From NCBI RefSeq assembly GCF_003991155.1, contig NZ_CP031293.1: 64,000 nt of DNA; one strand, 5' to 3'. Source of the DNA: Escherichia coli (GTDB lineage Bacteria > Pseudomonadota > Gammaproteobacteria > Enterobacterales > Enterobacteriaceae). This document shows positions 46,290 through 54,649 of the stretch, in pieces. Position numbers and translations under genes: made by a program. The stretch's first letter is position 1. Every line of letters begins with the position of its first letter. A model generated the notes under the pieces. That model saw only the letters and a program-made list of their open reading frames with translations. It was not told the DNA's origin and did no database searches.

Positions 46290-47243
46290 ATGCGGGCGAA
46301 ACTTCTGGGAATAGTCCTGACAACCCCTATTGCGATCAGCTCTTTTGCTTCTACCGAGACTATATCGTTTACTCCTGACAACATAAATGCGGGCATTAGT
46401 CTTGGAACTCTGAGCGGAAAAACAAAAGAGCGCGTTTATCTAGCTGAAGAAGGAGGCCGAAAAGTCAGTCAACTCGACTGGAAATTCAATAACGCTGCAA
46501 TTATTAAAGGTGCAATTAATTGGGATTTGATGCCCCAGATATCTATTGGGGCTGCGGGCTGGACTACTCTCGGCAGCCGAGGTGGCAATATGGTCGATCA
46601 GGACTGGATGGATTCCAGTAACCCCGGAACCTGGACAGATGAAAGTAGGCACCCTGATACACAACTCAATTATGCCAACGAATTTGATCTGAATATCAAA
46701 GGCTGGCTCCTCAACGAACCCAATTACCGCCTGGGACTCATGGCCGGATATCAGGAAAGCCGTTATAGCTTTACAGCCAGAGGTGGTTCCTATATCTACA
46801 GTTCTGAGGAGGGATTCAGAGATGATATCGGCTCCTTCCCGAATGGAGAAAGAGCAATCGGCTACAAACAACGTTTTAAAATGCCCTACATTGGCTTGAC
46901 TGGAAGTTATCGTTATGAAGATTTTGAGCTAGGTGGCACATTTAAATACAGCGGCTGGGTGGAAGCATCTGATAACGATGAGCACTATGACCCAGGAAAA
47001 AGAATCACTTATCGCAGTAAAGTCAAAGACCAAAATTACTATTCTGTTGCAGTCAATGCAGGTTATTACGTAACACCTAACGCAAAAGTTTATGTTGAAG
47101 GCGCATGGAATCGGGTTACGAATAAAAAAGGTAATACTTCACTTTATGATCACAATGATAACACTTCAGACTACAGCAAAAATGGTGCAGGCATAGAAAA
47201 CTATAACTTCATCACTACTGCTGGTCTTAAGTACACCTTTTAA
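46290..47243 (+). CDS. ompT: Outer membrane protease OmpT (omptin)
   Basis: 317-aa ORF recognised as OmpT; AT-rich upstream region. Confidence 0.93.
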   Translation: MRAKLLGIVLTTPIAISSFASTETISFTPDNINAGISLGTLSGKTKERVYLAEEGGRKVSQLDWKFNNAAIIKGAINWDLMPQISIGAAGWTTLGSRGGNMVDQDWMDSSNPGTWTDESRHPDTQLNYANEFDLNIKGWLLNEPNYRLGLMAGYQESRYSFTARGGSYIYSSEEGFRDDIGSFPNGERAIGYKQRFKMPYIGLTGSYRYEDFELGGTFKYSGWVEASDNDEHYDPGKRITYRSKVKDQNYYSVAVNAGYYVTPNAKVYVEGAWNRVTNKKGNTSLYDHNDNTSDYSKNGAGIENYNFITTAGLKYTF

Positions 47244-47263
47244 CGAAGTTAACCAGATTTTCT

Positions 47264-47290
47264 CCCCGGTGGTATTGTATAACCCCGGGG
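47264..47290 (+). terminator. Hairpin terminator after ompT
   Basis: ccccgg / ccgggg stem followed by a T-rich tract. Confidence 0.55.
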
Positions 47291-47429
47291 AATTTGTTTA
47301 CAGTTACAAGTAGACAATATCCACTAATTTTGTAAGCATTTAACCTATGTCATAACGTGTAATCTCTTACCGCAACACAAGACCTCAATATATTCAAATC
47401 TTATCTTTATTCCGATATTCAGAGACACA

Positions 47430-48914
47430 ATGCGAAAAATAATTACTCATTTCAAAGTTGTTTTAACGTTACTTCTACCAGTAACCGTATCTGCCCAGCA
47501 GATACAGTGGCAATCCTGTATGGCCAGTCAATTCAACCACTGGTTTGGTGAGGAAAAACCGTCTCCTGACTTACTATGTGGTTATTTGTCTGTTCCATTA
47601 AAATATACAGACACAGGCGGAGATGCTTCTTATGAAAAAAAATCACAAGTCAAACTAGCGTTGACAAAATTGCCGGCAAAAAGCAAGCATAAAGGAAGTA
47701 TCCTGATAATAAGTGGTGGTCCCGGGTTACCAGGCATAAATCCTTATATTAACTTTGACTGGCCAGTCACAAATCTTCGTGAGTCATGGGATATTATTGG
47801 ATTTGATCCTCGAGGCGTCGGACAGTCCACTCCGACAATAAACTGCCGGCAATCAGATACAGAGACTCAGGAAAACATAACCGAAAAGCAACAAGTATTA
47901 AATAAAATTAATGCCTGTATCCATAATACCGGAGCCGAAGTCATTCGCCATATCGGCTCTAACGAGGCTGTATACGATATTGATCGTATTAGGCAAGCCT
48001 TGGGGGATAAACAACTGACAGCCGTGGCGTATTCGTATGGAACTCAAATTGCAGCCTTATATGCAGAACGTTTTCCCTACAACGTAAGATCTATCGTTCT
48101 TGATGGAGTCGTCGATATCGATGACCTGGAGGACAACTTCACATGGCAACTCAAACAGGCACAGAGTTATCAGGAAACGTTTGATCGCTTTGCATCCTGG
48201 TGTGCGCGTACAAAAAGTTGCCCGCTTTCTTCAGACAGAGATAAGGCAATAACTCAGTTCCATGAGCTATTATCAAAATTACATCACAAACCTTTATTAG
48301 ACAGTAAGGGAGAAAATATATCTTCAGATGAACTCATATCATTAACAACAGACCTTCTGCTATGGCGTTCATCATGGCCAACCCTTGCAACTGCCATACG
48401 CCAGTTCTCTCAGGGGATTGTCAGTAATGAAATTGAAACTGCGCTCAGTGCTCCGATAGCCTCAGAAGAGTCAAGCGATGCTTCGGGGGTAATCCTCTGT
48501 GTAGATCAGGGGGATGAGCAATTAACACCAGAAGAGCGAAAATCCCGAAAAGACGCTCTTGCGAATGCCTTCCCGGCTATTAACTTTGACAATGGACGTT
48601 CCGATTCACCTGATTTTTGTGAATTATGGCCAATACATAGCGACCTGAACAAAACTCGCCTGAAAAATACTGTTCTGCCCTCTGGTTTACTGTTTGTAGC
48701 ACACAAATACGACCCAACAACGCCCTGGATTAATGCCCGTAAGATGGCAGAGAAATTTTCCAGCCCGTTACTAACAATAAATGGTGATGGGCATACATTA
48801 GCTCTCACCGGAGTTAATTTATGTGTAGATAAAGCAGTTGTACATCACCTGATCACTCCACAAAAAATAGAAAATATATACTGCCCAGGAAATTCTGAAG
48901 CAGAAATACAATAA
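47430..48914 (+). CDS. Putative secreted alpha/beta-hydrolase, S33 / TAP-like peptidase family
   Basis: 494-aa ORF with signal peptide (MRKIITHFKVVLTLLLPVTVSA), nucleophile-elbow-like YSYGT and a TAP-type C-terminal region (KYDPTTPW); occupies the K-12 appY position. Confidence 0.7.
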   Translation: MRKIITHFKVVLTLLLPVTVSAQQIQWQSCMASQFNHWFGEEKPSPDLLCGYLSVPLKYTDTGGDASYEKKSQVKLALTKLPAKSKHKGSILIISGGPGLPGINPYINFDWPVTNLRESWDIIGFDPRGVGQSTPTINCRQSDTETQENITEKQQVLNKINACIHNTGAEVIRHIGSNEAVYDIDRIRQALGDKQLTAVAYSYGTQIAALYAERFPYNVRSIVLDGVVDIDDLEDNFTWQLKQAQSYQETFDRFASWCARTKSCPLSSDRDKAITQFHELLSKLHHKPLLDSKGENISSDELISLTTDLLLWRSSWPTLATAIRQFSQGIVSNEIETALSAPIASEESSDASGVILCVDQGDEQLTPEERKSRKDALANAFPAINFDNGRSDSPDFCELWPIHSDLNKTRLKNTVLPSGLLFVAHKYDPTTPWINARKMAEKFSSPLLTINGDGHTLALTGVNLCVDKAVVHHLITPQKIENIYCPGNSEAEIQ

Positions 48915-48935
48915 TTTCAAAATATTCCGCTATTT

Positions 48936-48969
48936 GCTCCCAATGCAAAACATATATTGCATTGGGAGC
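48936..48969 (+). terminator. Rho-independent terminator after the hydrolase gene
   Basis: 13-bp perfect stem gctcccaatgcaa / ttgcattgggagc followed by a T-rich run. Confidence 0.65.
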
Positions 48970-49177
48970 ATATTCATATTTTTGTTATTCTTGTATGAAA
49001 TCGTCTCATGTACACGGTCCTTTTTTCGCCGAAAACTGATATTACTTTAATCAAAAGTTGACGTGCCAGATTCGAAGTAAATTTATAAAATATCAAATCA
49101 ATATACATTTTGCACCTTCGAGATAGTAATTGCTGTTACTGTAACATGAGTTACAAACAGCTTCATACCCAGAGCTA

Positions 49178-49396
49178 CTGATGTATCAACACGATTCAAC
49201 AATACCCGATATTTATTCCATGCCTCCAGCAACGATCTTTCTTCCTCCGTTGCGATTTCCCAGCATCCTGCAGTGGCGCAATATACTCACTGAATTCCTG
49301 GATGTAGAACTGTGTGGTGACGGTCTTCCAGCCATTCGGCTCCTGCTGTATCGAAGCATACCAGGCTATTTCAATATCGCTATGCTGCGGCAGCAT
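49178..49396 (-). pseudogene. Tail fibre assembly gene remnant (tfaX-like), frameshifted
   Basis: EYIAPLQDA matches the lambda Tfa C-terminal region as recalled; the rest of the Tfa C-terminus ([27 protein letters not shown]) is in another frame. Confidence 0.6.
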
Positions 49397-49452
49397 TTAA
49401 CCCCTTGTAATTCATCGCCATAATTGATTTAATTCACAAATAAAACTATAAC

Positions 49453-50121
49453 ATGGTGAAATTAATGAAAAAAAACACAGATGATGGGGCTAAAATTTAC
49501 ACACCACTTACCCTAAAGCTTTATGACTGGTGGGTTTTGGGAGTATCAAATCGGCTTGCATGGGGATGTCCTACAAAGGAACACCTTCTTCCACACTTTC
49601 TGGAACATTTAGGTAACAACCATCTGGATATTGGTGTTGGAACTGGGTTTTACCTTACTCACGTACCTGAGAGCAGTCTGATATCTTTAATGGATTTGAA
49701 CGAAGCTAGCCTGAACGCGGCATCTACAAGGGCTGGGGAATCAAAAATTAAACATAAAATTAGCCATGATGTTTTTGAACCTTATCCCGCGGCGTTACAT
49801 GGTCAATTTGATTCCATTTCCATGTTTTACCTTCTTCACTGCCTGCCTGGAAATATATCTACAAAAAGCTGTGTAATACGCAATGCGGCGCAGGCCTTAA
49901 CTGACGATGGAACTCTATACGGAGCCACAATTCTTGGCGATGGAGTTGTGCACAATAGCTTCGGTCAAAAACTGATGCGCATTTACAATCAGAAAGGCAT
50001 CTTTTCAAACACAAAAGATTCCGAAGAAGGCTTAACACATATACTCTCAGAGCATTTCGAGAATGTTAAAACCAAGGTTCAAGGTACTGTAGTAATGTTT
50101 TCCGCTTCAGGGAAAAAATAG
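49453..50121 (+). CDS. Class I SAM-dependent methyltransferase (ybcY-like prophage cargo), apparently intact
   Basis: 222-aa ORF with SAM motif I (LDIGVGTGF); sits between tfa remnants as ybcY does in K-12 DLP12. Confidence 0.75.
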   Translation: MVKLMKKNTDDGAKIYTPLTLKLYDWWVLGVSNRLAWGCPTKEHLLPHFLEHLGNNHLDIGVGTGFYLTHVPESSLISLMDLNEASLNAASTRAGESKIKHKISHDVFEPYPAALHGQFDSISMFYLLHCLPGNISTKSCVIRNAAQALTDDGTLYGATILGDGVVHNSFGQKLMRIYNQKGIFSNTKDSEEGLTHILSEHFENVKTKVQGTVVMFSASGKK

Positions 50122-50175
50122 CATCCAACCGCAGCACGTTCTTGCTTAAGACGTGCTGCGGCATAATCCCAATGA

Positions 50176-50300
50176 TTACTCCCTGACAGGGTTCGTAGGC
50201 CACTCAATATCAGGTGCAGTTGATGTATCAACACGGTTCAGCAACACCCGATACTTCTTCCAGGCTTCCAGCAACGAGGTTTCTTCCTCCGTTGCATATA
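50176..50300 (-). pseudogene. Tail fibre assembly gene 3' remnant (tfaD-like)
   Basis: Translates to [33 protein letters not shown] (Tfa C-terminus) with stops immediately upstream in frame. Confidence 0.6.
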
Positions 50301-50313
50301 CAGCTCACTTTTT

Positions 50314-50607
50314 TCACCCACGATTAACCAACAGCCAGACCAGCAGACACGCCACCACCGGCACAGCAAAATCCATCAGACTTGCTACATCCCACGCGCG
50401 CGGATCAAAACCGCCCCACCACGGCATATTCATTCGCTTGCCATGCCCGAACATTTCAATCCAGCGATATTCTGCCTGGGTGTGTTCACGCGCAATGAAG
50501 AACGTACAACCGGCTATCGCCCCGTAAACCCAGTTTCCGGTAAAAAGACCAATCAGTACCTGCGCAGCCACAGCACAAAGCGCATGAAGAAAAGGTGTTA
50601 TATCCAT
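50314..50607 (-). CDS. Hypothetical small membrane protein (97 aa), prophage tail-fibre region
   Basis: Track ORF with two or three hydrophobic helices, tightly packed after the 234-aa gene; no family recognised. Confidence 0.5.
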   Translation of the reverse strand: MDITPFLHALCAVAAQVLIGLFTGNWVYGAIAGCTFFIAREHTQAEYRWIEMFGHGKRMNMPWWGGFDPRAWDVASLMDFAVPVVACLLVWLLVNRG

Positions 50608-50617
50608 TACTCCTCCT

Positions 50618-51322
50618 TTATCTAATATCGCTTCGGGAAGTTAATAACAACTTTAATTCTGACTCAAGTTCATCAACTCTTTCAGTCAGTTTCTGGATAT
50701 GGTGAATCAGTGGAACAACCAGACGTTCGTACATTACACCTTCGGCAACAAGGCCATTGCTGGAAATAGCTTCAGGAGCATCATCTTCGTTAGCTGGTCG
50801 CCAGTGTACAAACTGAGGAGCAATTTCTCCTACTTCCTCGGCAATCAATCCGTAGAATCCCCAGTCACGCCTGTCATTTTCGCATTGCGACCTGTACCAC
50901 ACAGGGCGCATCCTGAAAATGAGATCGGCGTGCTCTGAATCTATTGTCTCTACTGAATGTTTATAGCGGATAGACGATGTTGACCGCAGCACAGACGAAA
51001 TTGCAGGGTCAGGATTAAGATAAAGGTTTGCCGCCGCTGTAGTCGTGGCCAAATTCCATAAATAAAACGCTTCACGACCTGTCAGTGGATAAAAATCTCC
51101 GCCATAACGACCACTTTCCAGATCGTTCACTTCCACTTTGTTTTTCAGCTTATTATCAACTTCAGTTTTTGTGTATCTGGAGCTGATATCCTGCTTTGCA
51201 CTGGTCATCTCAGTCTGAAGCGTTGATACTTTTCTGCTAATTGATGAAATATCTTCCTTAGCTTTACTGACATCTCCCTTTAGCTTGGTGATATCTCCTG
51301 GAATTACTGTCGATGTAGCCAT
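50618..51322 (-). CDS. Hypothetical fibre-like protein with a C-terminal S74-type intramolecular chaperone-like domain
   Basis: 234-aa ORF; motif SSIRYK then MRPVWYRS and GLIAEEVGEIAPQFV resembles the self-cleaving chaperone domain of phage fibres and spikes. Confidence 0.55.
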   Translation of the reverse strand: MATSTVIPGDITKLKGDVSKAKEDISSISRKVSTLQTEMTSAKQDISSRYTKTEVDNKLKNKVEVNDLESGRYGGDFYPLTGREAFYLWNLATTTAAANLYLNPDPAISSVLRSTSSIRYKHSVETIDSEHADLIFRMRPVWYRSQCENDRRDWGFYGLIAEEVGEIAPQFVHWRPANEDDAPEAISSNGLVAEGVMYERLVVPLIHHIQKLTERVDELESELKLLLTSRSDIR

Positions 51323-51331
51323 TTTTCTGCC

Positions 51332-51613
51332 TCACATCCAGCCACGAAGTTGATGCTCAACAACAACCGCGTATTTATCGAATATTGACGATTTTTTTGC
51401 ATCATTAATGATGCGCACGTTTACAAAATATCCATCTTCCTTAACACATACCGGTTCGCCATCTTCAGTCAGCTCTCCGGTTTCTTTGTACACGTTACCT
51501 ATCACGTCAATAAGAATATCATCCTGCATCGACTCGTCATCATAATAACCAGCACTCTCCATAAAGGTCGAAAAGTCGGCCCTGTCGGCAAATTTGAGTG
51601 TTAAATCTTTCAT
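51332..51613 (-). CDS. Hypothetical small acidic protein (93 aa), coupled to stf
   Basis: Start codon overlaps the stf stop at 51613; Asp/Glu-rich; no family recognised. Confidence 0.5.
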   Translation of the reverse strand: MKDLTLKFADRADFSTFMESAGYYDDESMQDDILIDVIGNVYKETGELTEDGEPVCVKEDGYFVNVRIINDAKKSSIFDKYAVVVEHQLRGWM

Positions 51614-53985
51614 TAGATTGACTCCCCCACCTGAGCATCAGTCAATGCCTTGTGCCATATTCTGAAATTCCTGACATGACCAAATAAATGACGTAACCCG
51701 GCTGTAGTCTGGCCTCCAATACGGATAATTGCGGTGTTCTGAATATAGGACCATGTGGTTTTTGTTTCGCTGGATATACGCCCGTTACTTACTGAGCACG
51801 TAGACTGATCTGACTTTACACGCATCCCCATAACCATTTTTTCAAGCAATGCGTTTTCGTTTACCCGTCTGTTAGCTCCTCCAATATCGCAATAAGGAAA
51901 TCCGTCGTAATCTGTTGAATGACCGAAGCCAAGAATAATAGCCGCTCCGGTTTGATGACCGCCGGTATCAAAAACACGCGGTGCTGCATTTGGCGTTTTA
52001 TACCAGTTCTTATGTACCTCACAAAGAACCGTAAAAGGAAGATTATAAAGGTTATTCTTGATTGGGACTGTCACCATATCGCTTGCGCGGGTCGCTGCCG
52101 TCGTTTCTGATATAATAAAAGATGATGCGCAAGGGCCATTTTCAACCTGAGGGGTGGACAGGAAAATATAATCTCCCGATTCAACGACACCACCTTCTTT
52201 TGGTGCGTATTGTATTGCCGAGGTTATGCAGGACTCGTCAATTGCCTGAATCGTTGCCTCTGCAAAAATCCAGCCCGTAACCTCATCCTTGTTAACTCGA
52301 GCAGTGAGCCTGTCGGCAGCTACACCGGTGATTTCAACCGATAAAGACCGCGTATTAACAATGGCATATCCAAGATTAGATGAAGCGCTGCCATCGAAGG
52401 CTTCAAACCTGATCCTTAACCGGAGTTCCAAATCCGTTTTAAATCTGCACGATGTCGTCACACACTTATTATCGCCTGATACATCGACAGCCCCGGTTAC
52501 TGTAACTGACGCCATGTTAACAGGAGAGGTTTTCCCAATCAGAGAATCGTTACAGACAAATTTTCCATAAGTAAAACCAAAACTATCCGTCCCGGTTTCG
52601 GGCACATCCATATTTACCGACTTGCCCCAACTGGCAGGGGTTTCCGAATTGAGCATGTAGTTCGTTCTCTGACCCTCAATAAGCAGGCCATCACGTTCAA
52701 ATCGTGGCTCGTCAATGGCAGCCTCTGTCAGCACACCAGATTTATTAATATAGGTTGCTTTCGATGCGCGTTTAAACTTTACAACCTTATCGCCAGGCAT
52801 CGTTATTTCATCATCACCAATAACAATCTTTTTATATGATGGCGAAAACCCCGTAATCATATCCAGTGAATCGTTAAACGGTATCCACACATCAGGCAGT
52901 GGCTGTAAGACATATTTATACGGCTCTGCTGCCTGACTTGCATACTCTCTGGCTGCGTCTTCACTTGCTTTTGCAGCGGTCTGGCTTGCAGCGGATGCTT
53001 TCGCCGAGTTCGCCGCTGCAGTCTCGCTTGTCTTTGCATTGGTTTCACTGGTTTTTGCTGCTTTTTGACTGTTGGCTGATGCAGTGGCAGAAGCAGCCGC
53101 CGCACTTGCAGAACCAGCTGCGGCACTCTCGCTTTGGGCTGCTGCATCCTGACTGTTTTTCGCCGCAGTTTCGCTGGCTTTAGCATTCGTTTCGCTGGTC
53201 TTCGCTGCCGTCTGGCTGGACTTTGCGTTGGTTTCGCTCGTCTTCGCTGCTTTCTGACTGTTAGCCGCAGCAGTTGCTGATCCAGCTGCTGAAGTCGCAG
53301 AACCGGCTGCTGCGCTCTCGCTTTCAGCTGCTGCAGCCTGGCTGTTTTTCGCCGCAGTTTCACTGGCTTTAGCATTCGTTTCGCTGGTCTTCGCTGCCGT
53401 CTGGCTTGACTTTGCGTTGGTTTCGCTCGTCTTTGCTGCTGTCTCGCTATTTTTCGCGTTGGTTTCTGATTTTTTGGCTGCTGTCGCGGAATTTGCCGAT
53501 GCAGTCTGTGAGGTCGCTGCCGCCTGTGCGCTGTTAGCTGCATTCGTTTCTGAGGTTTTCGCCGCGTTCTTCGATGATGCCGCTGCAGTTTCGGATTTCT
53601 TTGCCGCCGCTGCGCTCTGAGAGGCGGCTTCGGCGTTGCGTGCCACTTCTTCCACCATTGCCTCAAAACGACGCAATGCCTCCGGCATGACATCATCTTC
53701 CGTCATGGCACCGAGAAAATCATTCAGCGTACCTGGTCTGGAGCCTTCATAGACGGTAATGGTCCCAGCATGTGAAGGCGGAAAACCTTCAACCAGCAGG
53801 GTGACGCTGTACTGGCCATACTCAACATCCATGCTGTAACGTCCGGCTTCATCCGGATTTTCAGAAGCCACCGTGTTCACCAGTACCGTGGTGCTGTTAC
53901 GCTTTGCCTTCAGTTGAATAGTGCAGTTCTGTATTGGTTTTCCCGCACCATCTTTCAGCACACCTGAGATTTTTACTGCTGCCAT
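51613..53985 (-). CDS. stf: Side tail fibre protein Stf (lambda-like N-terminus, repeat region, distinct distal domain)
   Basis: N-terminus MAAVKISGVLKDGAGKPIQNCTIQLKAKRNSTTV matches lambda Stf as recalled; Ala/Ser/Thr-rich AAKTSETNAK repeats in the middle. Confidence 0.85.
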   Translation of the reverse strand: MAAVKISGVLKDGAGKPIQNCTIQLKAKRNSTTVLVNTVASENPDEAGRYSMDVEYGQYSVTLLVEGFPPSHAGTITVYEGSRPGTLNDFLGAMTEDDVMPEALRRFEAMVEEVARNAEAASQSAAAAKKSETAAASSKNAAKTSETNAANSAQAAATSQTASANSATAAKKSETNAKNSETAAKTSETNAKSSQTAAKTSETNAKASETAAKNSQAAAAESESAAAGSATSAAGSATAAANSQKAAKTSETNAKSSQTAAKTSETNAKASETAAKNSQDAAAQSESAAAGSASAAAASATASANSQKAAKTSETNAKTSETAAANSAKASAASQTAAKASEDAAREYASQAAEPYKYVLQPLPDVWIPFNDSLDMITGFSPSYKKIVIGDDEITMPGDKVVKFKRASKATYINKSGVLTEAAIDEPRFERDGLLIEGQRTNYMLNSETPASWGKSVNMDVPETGTDSFGFTYGKFVCNDSLIGKTSPVNMASVTVTGAVDVSGDNKCVTTSCRFKTDLELRLRIRFEAFDGSASSNLGYAIVNTRSLSVEITGVAADRLTARVNKDEVTGWIFAEATIQAIDESCITSAIQYAPKEGGVVESGDYIFLSTPQVENGPCASSFIISETTAATRASDMVTVPIKNNLYNLPFTVLCEVHKNWYKTPNAAPRVFDTGGHQTGAAIILGFGHSTDYDGFPYCDIGGANRRVNENALLEKMVMGMRVKSDQSTCSVSNGRISSETKTTWSYIQNTAIIRIGGQTTAGLRHLFGHVRNFRIWHKALTDAQVGESI

Positions 53986-54049
53986 ATCCACTCCACAAAA
54001 AAGCCCGCCTGAACCGGCGGGCTGTCATAACACTGTGTTACCTGGCTAA

Positions 54050-54649
54050 TCAGAATTTATAACCGACACCCACGATGAAACCGTCAGTGCGCCAGTCGCC
54101 ACTGCCGGAGCCTTCATAAGCAATATCAATGGCCACGGATTCGGTCGGGTTAAACTGCACGCCAGCTCCCCACGCCAGAGACGTGTTGCTGTGGCGATCG
54201 TCATCACTTCCGGTCAGCACATCGTGCGTTTTCCCCTTGTTGTCAGTTACGCGGAGATAATCCCCGGAGAACGTCGAAACACGGCTGTAAGCCACACCTG
54301 CCATCGCATAAGCACTGAACCATTCATTCACGCGTACAGATGGCCCCGCCATCATGCTGAACCAGCGGTTACGCACTGAATCTTCATGCCAGCGGGTATC
54401 GCTGTAATGCGTTTTTTGCTCATCTTTGGCATTGGCATAACTGAATGACGTCACCAGCCCCAGCGTGTCCGTAAATTCATAACGGTATTTCACGTTAATG
54501 CCCTTCAGGTCATCACTGCCTGGCATATCAGTATGGGTCTGAAGATACCCGGCGCTTAGTGTGGACTGATGCTCTGCTGCGCTCGCTGGCGTACCAGCGG
54601 CAACCAGCCAGACTACTGCGGACAGAATAACAGCACATAATTTACGCAT
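54050..54649 (-). CDS. lom: Lom-family outer membrane protein (Ail/Lom/OmpX family)
   Basis: Track ORF trimmed to MRKLCAVILSAVV; lies between J and stf as in lambda; C-terminal GVGYKF. Confidence 0.88.
   Translation of the reverse strand: MRKLCAVILSAVVWLVAAGTPASAAEHQSTLSAGYLQTHTDMPGSDDLKGINVKYRYEFTDTLGLVTSFSYANAKDEQKTHYSDTRWHEDSVRNRWFSMMAGPSVRVNEWFSAYAMAGVAYSRVSTFSGDYLRVTDNKGKTHDVLTGSDDDRHSNTSLAWGAGVQFNPTESVAIDIAYEGSGSGDWRTDGFIVGVGYKF

Follow-up and report, generated by a model that had tools for sequence, protein, structure and literature searches.

What stands behind the side tail fibre gene of a lambdoid phage when tfa, its partner in the canonical stf-tfa locus, has been reduced to a short remnant? 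The question is raised by a stretch of 64,000 nucleotides from Escherichia coli (contig NZ_CP031293.1 of assembly GCF_003991155.1), referred to here as the window, in which a lambdoid prophage at the DLP12 position houses the side tail fibre gene stf and three small genes, every gene of the set lying on the minus strand. A first-pass annotation had described the layout as a 93-residue acidic protein whose start overlaps the stf stop, a 234-residue protein with a chaperone-like C-terminus, a 97-residue membrane protein, and a 3′ fragment of tfa. This description is confirmed by the TAATG junction, a PF13884 match, a three-helix structural model, and the translation of the tfa fragment, respectively. 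It is reasonably probable, at about 65% in our estimate, that the locus provides the lambdoid side tail fibre with an alternative distal cassette, consisting of four working parts and a scar. The names p93, fib2, and p97 are used here for the three small genes and their products, and the features are as follows.

51613..53991, minus strand: stf, side tail fibre, 792 residues; its N-terminal virion-attachment domain is of the lambda type, its shaft is Ala-rich and repetitive, and its distal head has ~420 residues
51332..51613, minus strand: p93, acidic protein of 93 residues, with an ATG/TAA overlap with stf
50618..51322, minus strand: fib2, proposed short second fibre of 234 residues, with a C-terminal Peptidase_S74 domain
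50314..50607, minus strand: p97, three-helix membrane protein of 97 residues, 'Ybl63' family, phrog_1443, the last gene of the fibre operon
50176..50304, minus strand: tfa 3′ remnant, non-coding, the last ~40 codons and the stop, marking the right-hand recombination junction of the cassette

This reading is carried by how the genes are arranged, conserved, and distributed, by the S74 domain, and by the right-hand junction, and a working scheme could be built on these findings. The lambda-type N-terminus of Stf would plug into the tail tip, and the head of about 420 residues would replace the Tfa-dependent tip of lambda. The translationally coupled p93 would stand in for Tfa at this head, whether by helping it to fold or assemble or by staying bound to the tip as a small component. 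The fib2 product would be a short trimeric fibre docked on Stf via its N-terminal peptide, giving a two-component or branched fibre, and its S74 domain would fold the trimer and then cut itself off at Ser116. Finally, p97 would be a small inner-membrane protein that acts on the host envelope and is dispensable for fibre building.

Distribution and Selection

The 1.6-kb stretch is covered over at least 80% of its length in 719 of 5426 complete E. coli genomes (13%). Within the same set, the p97 gene alone is present in 1886 genomes (35%), with a median of two copies, and the p93 allele class in 987. A much higher p97 count, 4884 of 5426 genomes, was set aside, as that figure was driven by the conserved tfa 3′ fragment in the query and not by p97. 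Eighty E. coli prophage loci from IMG/VR, retrieved through p97, were compared in gene order, and approximately 77 of them show a conserved stf 5′ end, a variable head (33-100% identity), p93, an optional fib2, p97, and, where the sequence extends that far, the tfa stub. The fib2 slot in these loci is filled by a gene for 227/234 residues or ~345 residues, or is empty. The cassette is also carried by the plaque-forming phages PhiR49_1, IdasGreatGrand, 2G7b, and PhiR55_1, and phage 21 has a version without fib2. As the same cassette and stub occur in plaque-forming phages and in hundreds of E. coli genomes, the view of the locus as a peculiarity of this prophage has to be given up. The first-pass annotation had also named, as a finding that would speak against it, that the three proteins are a common and already annotated accessory set; the commonness is largely seen, but the annotation is not, because the records are mostly 'hypothetical'. 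All three proteins fall in PHROG families, of which two have no assigned function.

Two further occurrences were seen. The circular 108-kb phage PhiR41_1, which has ParA, contains stf-p93-p97 of the phage 21 type without fib2 (L099:4001-4573), and p97 matches are found at 57 places on E. coli plasmids.

The three reading frames could, in principle, be inert debris of successive tail-fibre recombinations, similar to the tfa stub. A genuine remnant does lie immediately downstream, and within the long fibre profile phrog_3299 it is the C-terminal part that fib2 matches. This possibility is nevertheless hardly credible. The frames are intact in nearly all loci (58 of 58 for p93, 31 of 39 for fib2, and 75 of 80 for p97), and the ratios of non-synonymous to synonymous substitution rates (dN/dS) against the window alleles are 0.31, 0.21, and 0.11, respectively, so that p93, fib2, and p97 are under purifying selection. 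It is these conservation data that refute the debris reading, and the comparative check thereby also upholds the expectation that the frames are conserved as coding in related prophages. All three start codons are present, fib2 and p97 have Shine-Dalgarno sequences of their own, p93 overlaps the stf stop, and the genes are found in plaque-forming temperate phages as well as in virulent phages.

The tfa Remnant and the Recombination Junction

The claim that the module has replaced most of tfa holds: only the 3′ stub is left. The interval 50179..50304 translates to the last 42 residues of Tfa, which are followed by a stop, and it has no start codon. The window is 97% identical over 49174-50295 to the segment of K-12 DLP12 running from the 3′ end of tfaD through ybcY to tfaX, and this homology ends at 50295, at about codon 148 of the 187-residue TfaD. 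In a genome that is identical over 50100-51700, the Prokaryotic Genome Annotation Pipeline (PGAP) calls the stretch a pseudogene for 'tail fiber assembly protein, missing N-terminus'. K-12 DLP12 itself keeps a full tfaD beside ybcY and thus represents the canonical cassette type at the same site. The stub also lies 3′ of p97 in phage 21 and in most of the IMG/VR loci reaching that far. The sharing of the same cassette and the same stub by plaque-forming phages and hundreds of genomes suggests that the replacement of tfa is old and inherited. The cassette would have entered the canonical stf-tfa locus by recombination, with the right junction inside tfa, and cassette exchange may now use the conserved 5′ end of stf and the 3′ stub of tfa as homology arms.

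Two observations on the surrounding sequence can be added. At ~49098-49380, to the left of ybcY, the PGAP annotation of the genome identical over 50100-51700 indicates fragments of two genes, a second, frameshifted tfa and DinI, which correspond to the tfaX region of K-12. The second tfa fragment suggests that the site bears the scars of at least two fibre-cassette exchanges. In addition, many viral regions in IMG/VR (L013-L092) stop exactly at the p97 stop codon (locus length 5294), and evidently the prophage-boundary callers halt at p97, omitting the tfa stub and the cargo genes ybcY and ompT.

The Side Tail Fibre and Its Distal Head

The stf reading frame opens at a GTG codon, and an in-frame ATG two codons further (53985) is the likelier start. 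Residues 5-134 of Stf match PF08400 (phage_tail_N, the prophage tail fibre N-terminal family) with an E value of 5e-67, and residues 5-97 match the 94-residue 'Tail fiber protein' chain of PDB entries 9e7m/9mgh (E=7e-49). Over its full length the protein matches phrog_1419; phrog_5939 is matched as well, and the NCBIfam model GTA_spike_fiber ('GTA head spike fiber') is placed at residues 437-636.

The head, which occupies roughly 51613-52875 of the window, is 45-63% identical over ~400-420 residues to the C-termini of lateral tail fibres of virulent coliphages. The fibres compared were those of T5-like IrisVonRoten, the Dhillonvirus 'rolling', T1-like PeterMerian, and rV5-like CarlMeissner, and all of the heads finish with the pattern ...RHLFGH(V/I)RN(F/L)RIWHK.LTD.Q. 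By homology, Stf belongs with the lateral tail fibres that have a lectin-like head (RBPseg pseudo-domain D69; phrog_1419/5939). The RBPseg study described such a lectin-like β-sandwich head, checked by cryo-electron microscopy, on the fibre RBP_10 of phage EmilHeitz (PMC12143355), and a distant relative in contig L102 matches Laminin_G_3. Together with the GTA_spike_fiber match, these relationships suggest a putative lectin-like, β-sandwich head that probably binds a surface glycan. Weighing against this assignment, the Pfam search of Stf gave no Laminin_G domain, and the fold is taken from homology and a single paper, not from a model of the head itself.

The Ala-rich shaft contains a 189-bp (63-residue) tandem repeat in 2.3 copies at 53014-53444, and the 5′ end of fib2 contains a 21-bp heptad tandem repeat in 2.4 copies at 51249-51298, whose number varies among homologues. 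Homologues show indels of 7 or 14 residues at the repeats of the Stf shaft and of the 5′ end of fib2, and fibre length probably varies through repeat slippage. The window's stf is one intact frame of 792 residues, unlike the copy in the genome identical over 50100-51700, which PGAP breaks into three pieces, namely a pseudogene, a 'phage tail protein', and a further, N-terminal pseudogene (L001:7514-9886). The discrepancy reflects either a real difference in the repeat-rich shaft or a difficulty of the annotation pipeline with it.

p93, a Proposed Partner of the Head

The ATG of p93 shares one base with the TAA stop of stf (TAATG). The encoded protein has an isoelectric point of 4.31 and contains 20 acidic (D+E) against 10 basic (K+R) residues. 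It matches phrog_1361, a PHROG without assigned function, with an E value of 1e-45, and no match was obtained in Pfam even at E<=10, in NCBIfam, or in PADLOC; the PDB sequence search also returned nothing significant. Fold prediction was of moderate quality only, with no informative structural neighbours. Although p93 occupies the position of Tfa, it shows no homology to Tfa, and the lack of any Pfam family match argues that it is not a member of the Tfa family.

Homologues of p93 are present in 181 phage records from lambdoid phages, Drexlerviridae, Dhillonvirus, Queuovirinae, Markadamsvirinae, and Vequintavirinae. Each homologue inspected lies directly 3′ of a tail fibre gene, mostly with overlapping stop and start codons; in EmilHeitz, a p93-like gene adjoins a lateral tail fibre gene. 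The head and p93 occur without fib2 in phage 21, the Dhillonvirus 'rolling', the rV5-like phages CarlMeissner and EmilHeitz, and PhiR41_1, and together with fib2 in the virulent phages ESCO3, PeterMerian, SECphi27, and IrisVonRoten. In the IMG/VR loci, the strongly divergent R55-type p93 was paired with the R55-type head every time, and the fib2 type varied. This pairing and the occurrence both with and without fib2 indicate that p93 goes with the head and not with fib2. We accordingly propose from these gene associations that p93 could be the head's own partner, an assembly factor or a tip component, filling the slot that Tfa fills for the lambda tip. As a point against such specificity, the common p93 allele class also adjoins heads with as little as 33-36% identity to the reference heads, and the pairing of p93 and head could then reflect physical linkage. 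It is possible that p93 is an uncharacterised pan-coliphage tip partner of head-type lateral fibres, found also in the BASEL model phages.

fib2: a Second Fibre or a Chaperone?

The fib2 gene has its own Shine-Dalgarno sequence, GAGG, 7 nt upstream. Its product can be divided into a conserved N-terminal peptide (residues 1-15), heptad repeats (~15-65), a tip of ~50 residues (66-115), and the S74 chaperone (116-234; window 50621-50977). Pfam PF13884 (Peptidase_S74) matches residues 116-172 with an E value of 2.2e-5, and the C-terminal position fits the family. Residues 110-222 align with the C-terminus of DT57C LtfA (PDB 8hqz_d). In S74 domains of the endosialidase type, the catalytic Ser is located at the cleavage site and a Lys at i+5. 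The corresponding segment of fib2 is S116-S-I-R-Y-K121, in which the Ser and the Lys are invariant in five lambdoid and T1-like homologues, suggesting that fib2 would mature through S74 self-cleavage at Ser116. Besides the alignment of fib2 to phrog_3299 mentioned above, its N-terminal 32 residues match phrog_4563 and phrog_19752.

The N-terminal motif MATxTVIPxDITxLK starts at residue 1 of proteins of 227, 231, 345, 351, and 574 residues, and after two extra residues in SECphi27. These proteins span lambdoid, T1-like (Drexlerviridae), 9g-like (Queuovirinae), and T5-like phages, and their middle parts are unrelated. fib2 thus lacks a virion-attachment domain and has a short N-terminal peptide conserved across unrelated phages, as do the second proteins of branched fibres. 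A tblastn search with its first 36 residues (E<=1) gave 66 records, and neither DT57C nor phiEco32 was among the 60 of them listed, the presence of these two phages in the searched collection being unconfirmed. In the IMG/VR loci, fib2 types shuffle freely against both head and p93 types. From this shuffling, the several phages without fib2, and the shared N-terminal peptide, fib2 would appear to be an optional add-on second fibre subunit with a generic docking peptide. A search of the head alignment for a docking site found no segment exclusive to fibres with a fib2 partner.

Several points count against this picture. The proposed contacts among Stf, p93, and fib2 are deduced from the genes, and no virion proteomics was found for p93 or fib2. 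Moreover, the part of fib2 before the cleavage site is short (115 residues) and fairly conserved, which makes it less like a variable receptor-binding tip, and the annotators of the BASEL phages label fib2 homologues 'putative lateral tail fiber chaperone'. It could then be argued that fib2 is not a fibre and is a trans-acting S74 chaperone for trimerisation or folding of the Stf head, with p93 as co-chaperone and neither protein in the virion. Such a role would agree with the label 'chaperone of endosialidase' in other records and with the 58% identity of the mature part of the 234-residue form between lambdoid and T1-like phages. We regard it as unlikely, because fibres with the head and p93 in phage 21, 'rolling', the rV5-like phages, and PhiR41_1 have no fib2, and the head therefore does not need it. 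In addition, relatives with the same N-terminal peptide reach 345-574 residues with unrelated middles, as expected of fibres, and the combinations of fib2 type and head type are freely shuffled. Action in trans would also be at odds with the S74 domain, which works in cis on the chain it belongs to. A trans-chaperone is hard to reconcile with fibres that lack fib2, the objection being weaker for the short 234-residue form.

The first-pass suggestion of an alternative receptor-binding and chaperone set fits p93, adjacent to stf, and fib2 in outline, but the module is not one unit, because p93 tracks the head, fib2 is optional and shuffled, and p97 is independent of both.

p97, a Conserved Membrane Protein behind Receptor-Binding Genes

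The p97 frame is preceded by AAGGAGGAG, which we count as its own Shine-Dalgarno sequence. The AlphaFold2 model consists of three helices with a mean pLDDT (predicted local distance difference test score) of 94.6. The protein is named 'Ybl63' in UniProt and belongs to phrog_1443, to which no function is assigned, and no paper mentioning 'Ybl63' was found in the literature. Pfam and NCBIfam gave no match to p97, the PDB sequence search gave nothing significant, and the Foldseek search with the model retrieved uncharacterised homologues only; VanZ- and CPBP-like matches had E values above 2 and were discarded. Searches with a profile of the p97 alignment covered 5.8 billion and 1.84 billion proteins and revealed a family of 1956 clusters at 90% identity and 423 at 50% identity, in Gamma-, Beta-, and Alphaproteobacteria; no fusions were detected in these searches, which gave solely stand-alone proteins of ~57-146 residues. 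The invariant residues are H8, A45, E46, W49, G56, R58, P62, G65, and G66, with R40-E41-H42 nearly invariant, and the AlphaFold2 model places the conserved residues together on a single face of the membrane.

In P2-like, lambdoid, and unknown phages, p97 lies 0-18 bp past the last receptor-binding gene or overlaps it. Its upstream neighbours are lambdoid Stf cassettes, a P2-like S74 fibre in Leclercia, a pectate-lyase-type tailspike in Enterobacter, J and a 72-residue gene in Comamonas, and head-type fibres in three metagenomic contigs. Its sequence remains ~95% identical whichever fib2 type it accompanies and although the neighbouring heads share only 33-61% identity. The coliphage matches at 77% identity or more (n=53), to which the full-length ones are confined, comprise genomes of ~38-50 kb with lambda-like names, ECOR-induced phages, one circular 108-kb phage, and an Stx phage. 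None of these 53 matches lies in the T1-, T5-, 9g-, or rV5-like phages that have the same head and p93. The existence of virulent phages with the same head and p93 and no p97 indicates that p97 is not needed for assembling these fibres.

Partial p97-like matches (residues ~41-94, 42-47% identity) were also seen in phages HC6, 6947, ZCEC08, and PBM-3 (e.g., OL362274.1, 34208-34369) and in the Aeromonas jumbo phages PS1, PS2, and ACP1. These phages do not have a lambdoid appearance, the matching DNA is unannotated or annotated as hypothetical, and the matches may be distant relatives or fragments.

Our tentative reading is that p97 might have a conserved target at the host envelope and serve superinfection exclusion or lysogenic conversion. 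This would fit the rule that exclusion genes adjoin receptor-binding genes. It would also fit the argument, made together with a discussion of the linkage logic, that temperate phages alone profit from the modification of abundant glycans (PMC11990801). The superinfection-exclusion or cargo role mentioned in the first-pass annotation is possible for p97 to this extent.

A number of findings weigh against an envelope role. No match to p97 was obtained in PADLOC at E<=0.1. No promoter-like site was found upstream of p97, and the gene is tightly coupled to the late genes; classic lysogenic-conversion morons are not arranged in this way. A p97 homologue in Aeromonas rivipollensis (L008:6001-6309) stands alone in the chromosome between pirin and RIO1 kinase genes, with 6 kb free of phage genes in both directions and two lipid A acyltransferase genes nearby. 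In an ENA metagenome contig (L101:89-2393), a phrog_5939 head-type fibre is followed by a p97 homologue overlapping its end and then by a p93-like gene of phrog_18574. The homologue lies here between the fibre and the p93-like gene, as it does not in E. coli, and this placement hints that its role may be linked to the fibre. A Logan contig (L102:2096-4546) encodes a fibre-like protein with Laminin_G_3, a 45-residue frame, a p97 homologue, a 98-residue frame, and an M15 endolysin, so that the homologue sits at the boundary between fibre and lysis genes, one gene from the endolysin.

The last two arrangements would be expected if p97 were tied to the receptor-binding proteins themselves, as a membrane factor for fibre or tailspike maturation or release, or as a lysis accessory of the holin or antiholin type. 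The tight coupling or overlap with the upstream receptor-binding gene in unrelated phages, the length of ~100 residues with three helices, as in class I holins, and the failure to find a promoter of its own would agree with this. The virulent T1-, T5-, 9g-, and rV5-like phages, however, build the head and p93, with or without fib2, in the absence of p97. The records of phage 21 and K-12 DLP12 show no lysis genes adjoining the fibre/tfa locus, the DLP12 genes essD/rrrD/rzpD lying ~3.4 kb upstream of tfaD, beyond nohD. p97 also lacks a charged C-terminal tail, and its conserved H8, R40-E41-H42, E46, and R58 are unlike holins. A tie of this kind is therefore rather doubtful.

Two specific identities were examined and rejected. 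As a class I holin, p97 fits in size and number of helices, but its gene closes the fibre operon, its C-terminus (...LLVNRG) forms no charged tail, and its polar motifs are strongly conserved. Against a lipoprotein of the Cor/Llp type, its N-terminus, MDITPFLHALC, has by inspection no basic n-region and no canonical lipobox, and AlphaFold2 puts this segment in a transmembrane helix.

Returning to the envelope reading, a wider form of it is conceivable, although the odds are against it: the p97 family would be a new class of small inner-membrane factor behind receptor-binding genes, acting on a conserved envelope step. Such a class may work via the invariant His/Glu/Arg cluster, excluding superinfecting phages or altering surface glycan display whatever the fibre.

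Relation to Known Systems

The locus resembles the lambda Stf-Tfa system (Ur-lambda; K-12 Rac, Qin, e14, and DLP12) in its location after J and lom, in the Stf N-terminal attachment domain, in the small gene translationally coupled to stf that comes next, and in the tfa 3′ end that is still there. However, the distal 420 residues are unrelated to the Tfa-dependent lambda tip and homologous to the heads of T1-, T5-, and rV5-like phages, p93 is no Tfa homologue, and two extra genes follow p93. Nothing on the side fibres of phage 21 was found in the literature, and the papers on the Eligo lambda-STF and Hf4s do not treat the cassette.

Branched two-protein fibres with a short conserved docking N-terminus have been described for DT57C LtfA/LtfB and phiEco32 gp14/gp15 (PMC4728585), and LtfA and LtfB of DT57C are numbered as adjacent genes (PMC10713586). 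Compared with these systems, including DT571-2, the present locus likewise has two fibre genes, the first with a virion-attachment N-terminus and the second with a conserved short N-terminal peptide, and fib2 and LtfA both have S74-type C-terminal domains. In contrast, the two fibre genes are separated by p93 here, as they are in IrisVonRoten, the first fibre ends in a head of ~420 residues and not in an S74 domain, and attachment of the second fibre is a proposal from the genes. The S74 chaperone of fib2 shares with those of K1F endosialidase and T5 pb1 its profile match, its place at the C-terminus, and a Ser/Lys pair where the domain begins; the part of fib2 before the domain is unusually small at 115 residues, consisting of a coiled coil and the ~50-residue tip.

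T5 Llp, T1/phi80 Cor, HK97 gp15, and the O-antigen conversion genes of P22 and epsilon15 share with p97 a position beside receptor-binding genes near the end of the late operon, and p97 was not found in virulent coliphages having the same fibre head. It differs from them in that it shows no relation in sequence or fold, no PADLOC match, and, by inspection, no lipoprotein signal, does not co-vary with the receptor-binding domain, and has no promoter of its own that could be found; exclusion is only tentatively proposed for it. The family memberships that can be demonstrated for the locus are those of the Stf N-terminus and the S74 domain only, and p93 and p97 belong to catalogued families without assigned function.

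Surroundings of the Locus

The genes around the locus follow the order envY, ompT, an alpha/beta hydrolase gene, ybcY, the fibre genes, lom, and J. Between lom and stf lies one further feature, which bears on how the cassette would be transcribed.

54002..54023, minus strand: terminator-like hairpin in the lom/stf intergenic region, with an 8-bp stem of which 7 pairs are G-C, followed by a T-run

An Rfam scan of 48800-54300 returned no RNA families. Homology to K-12 spans 45500-47293 and 49174-50295, with none in the interval between. In this interval (47294-49173), appY of K-12 DLP12, located between tfaX and ompT, is replaced by a plus-strand reading frame at 47430-48914 for an alpha/beta hydrolase of 494 residues.

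Implications for Lambdoid Phages and Their Hosts

Host recognition begins with the side and lateral tail fibres, which are also swapped when phage host range is engineered. The cassette is among the commonest fibre tips in E. coli prophages, and the combination of its head with p93 is common to virulent model phages of the BASEL collection. It is widespread and ordinary conserved biology and not an anomaly of the window. Should folding or completion of the head depend on p93, a head of this kind that is grafted onto another phage would have to bring p93 along. A function of p97 in exclusion or conversion, if borne out, would help to explain the phage resistance patterns of natural E. coli lysogens.

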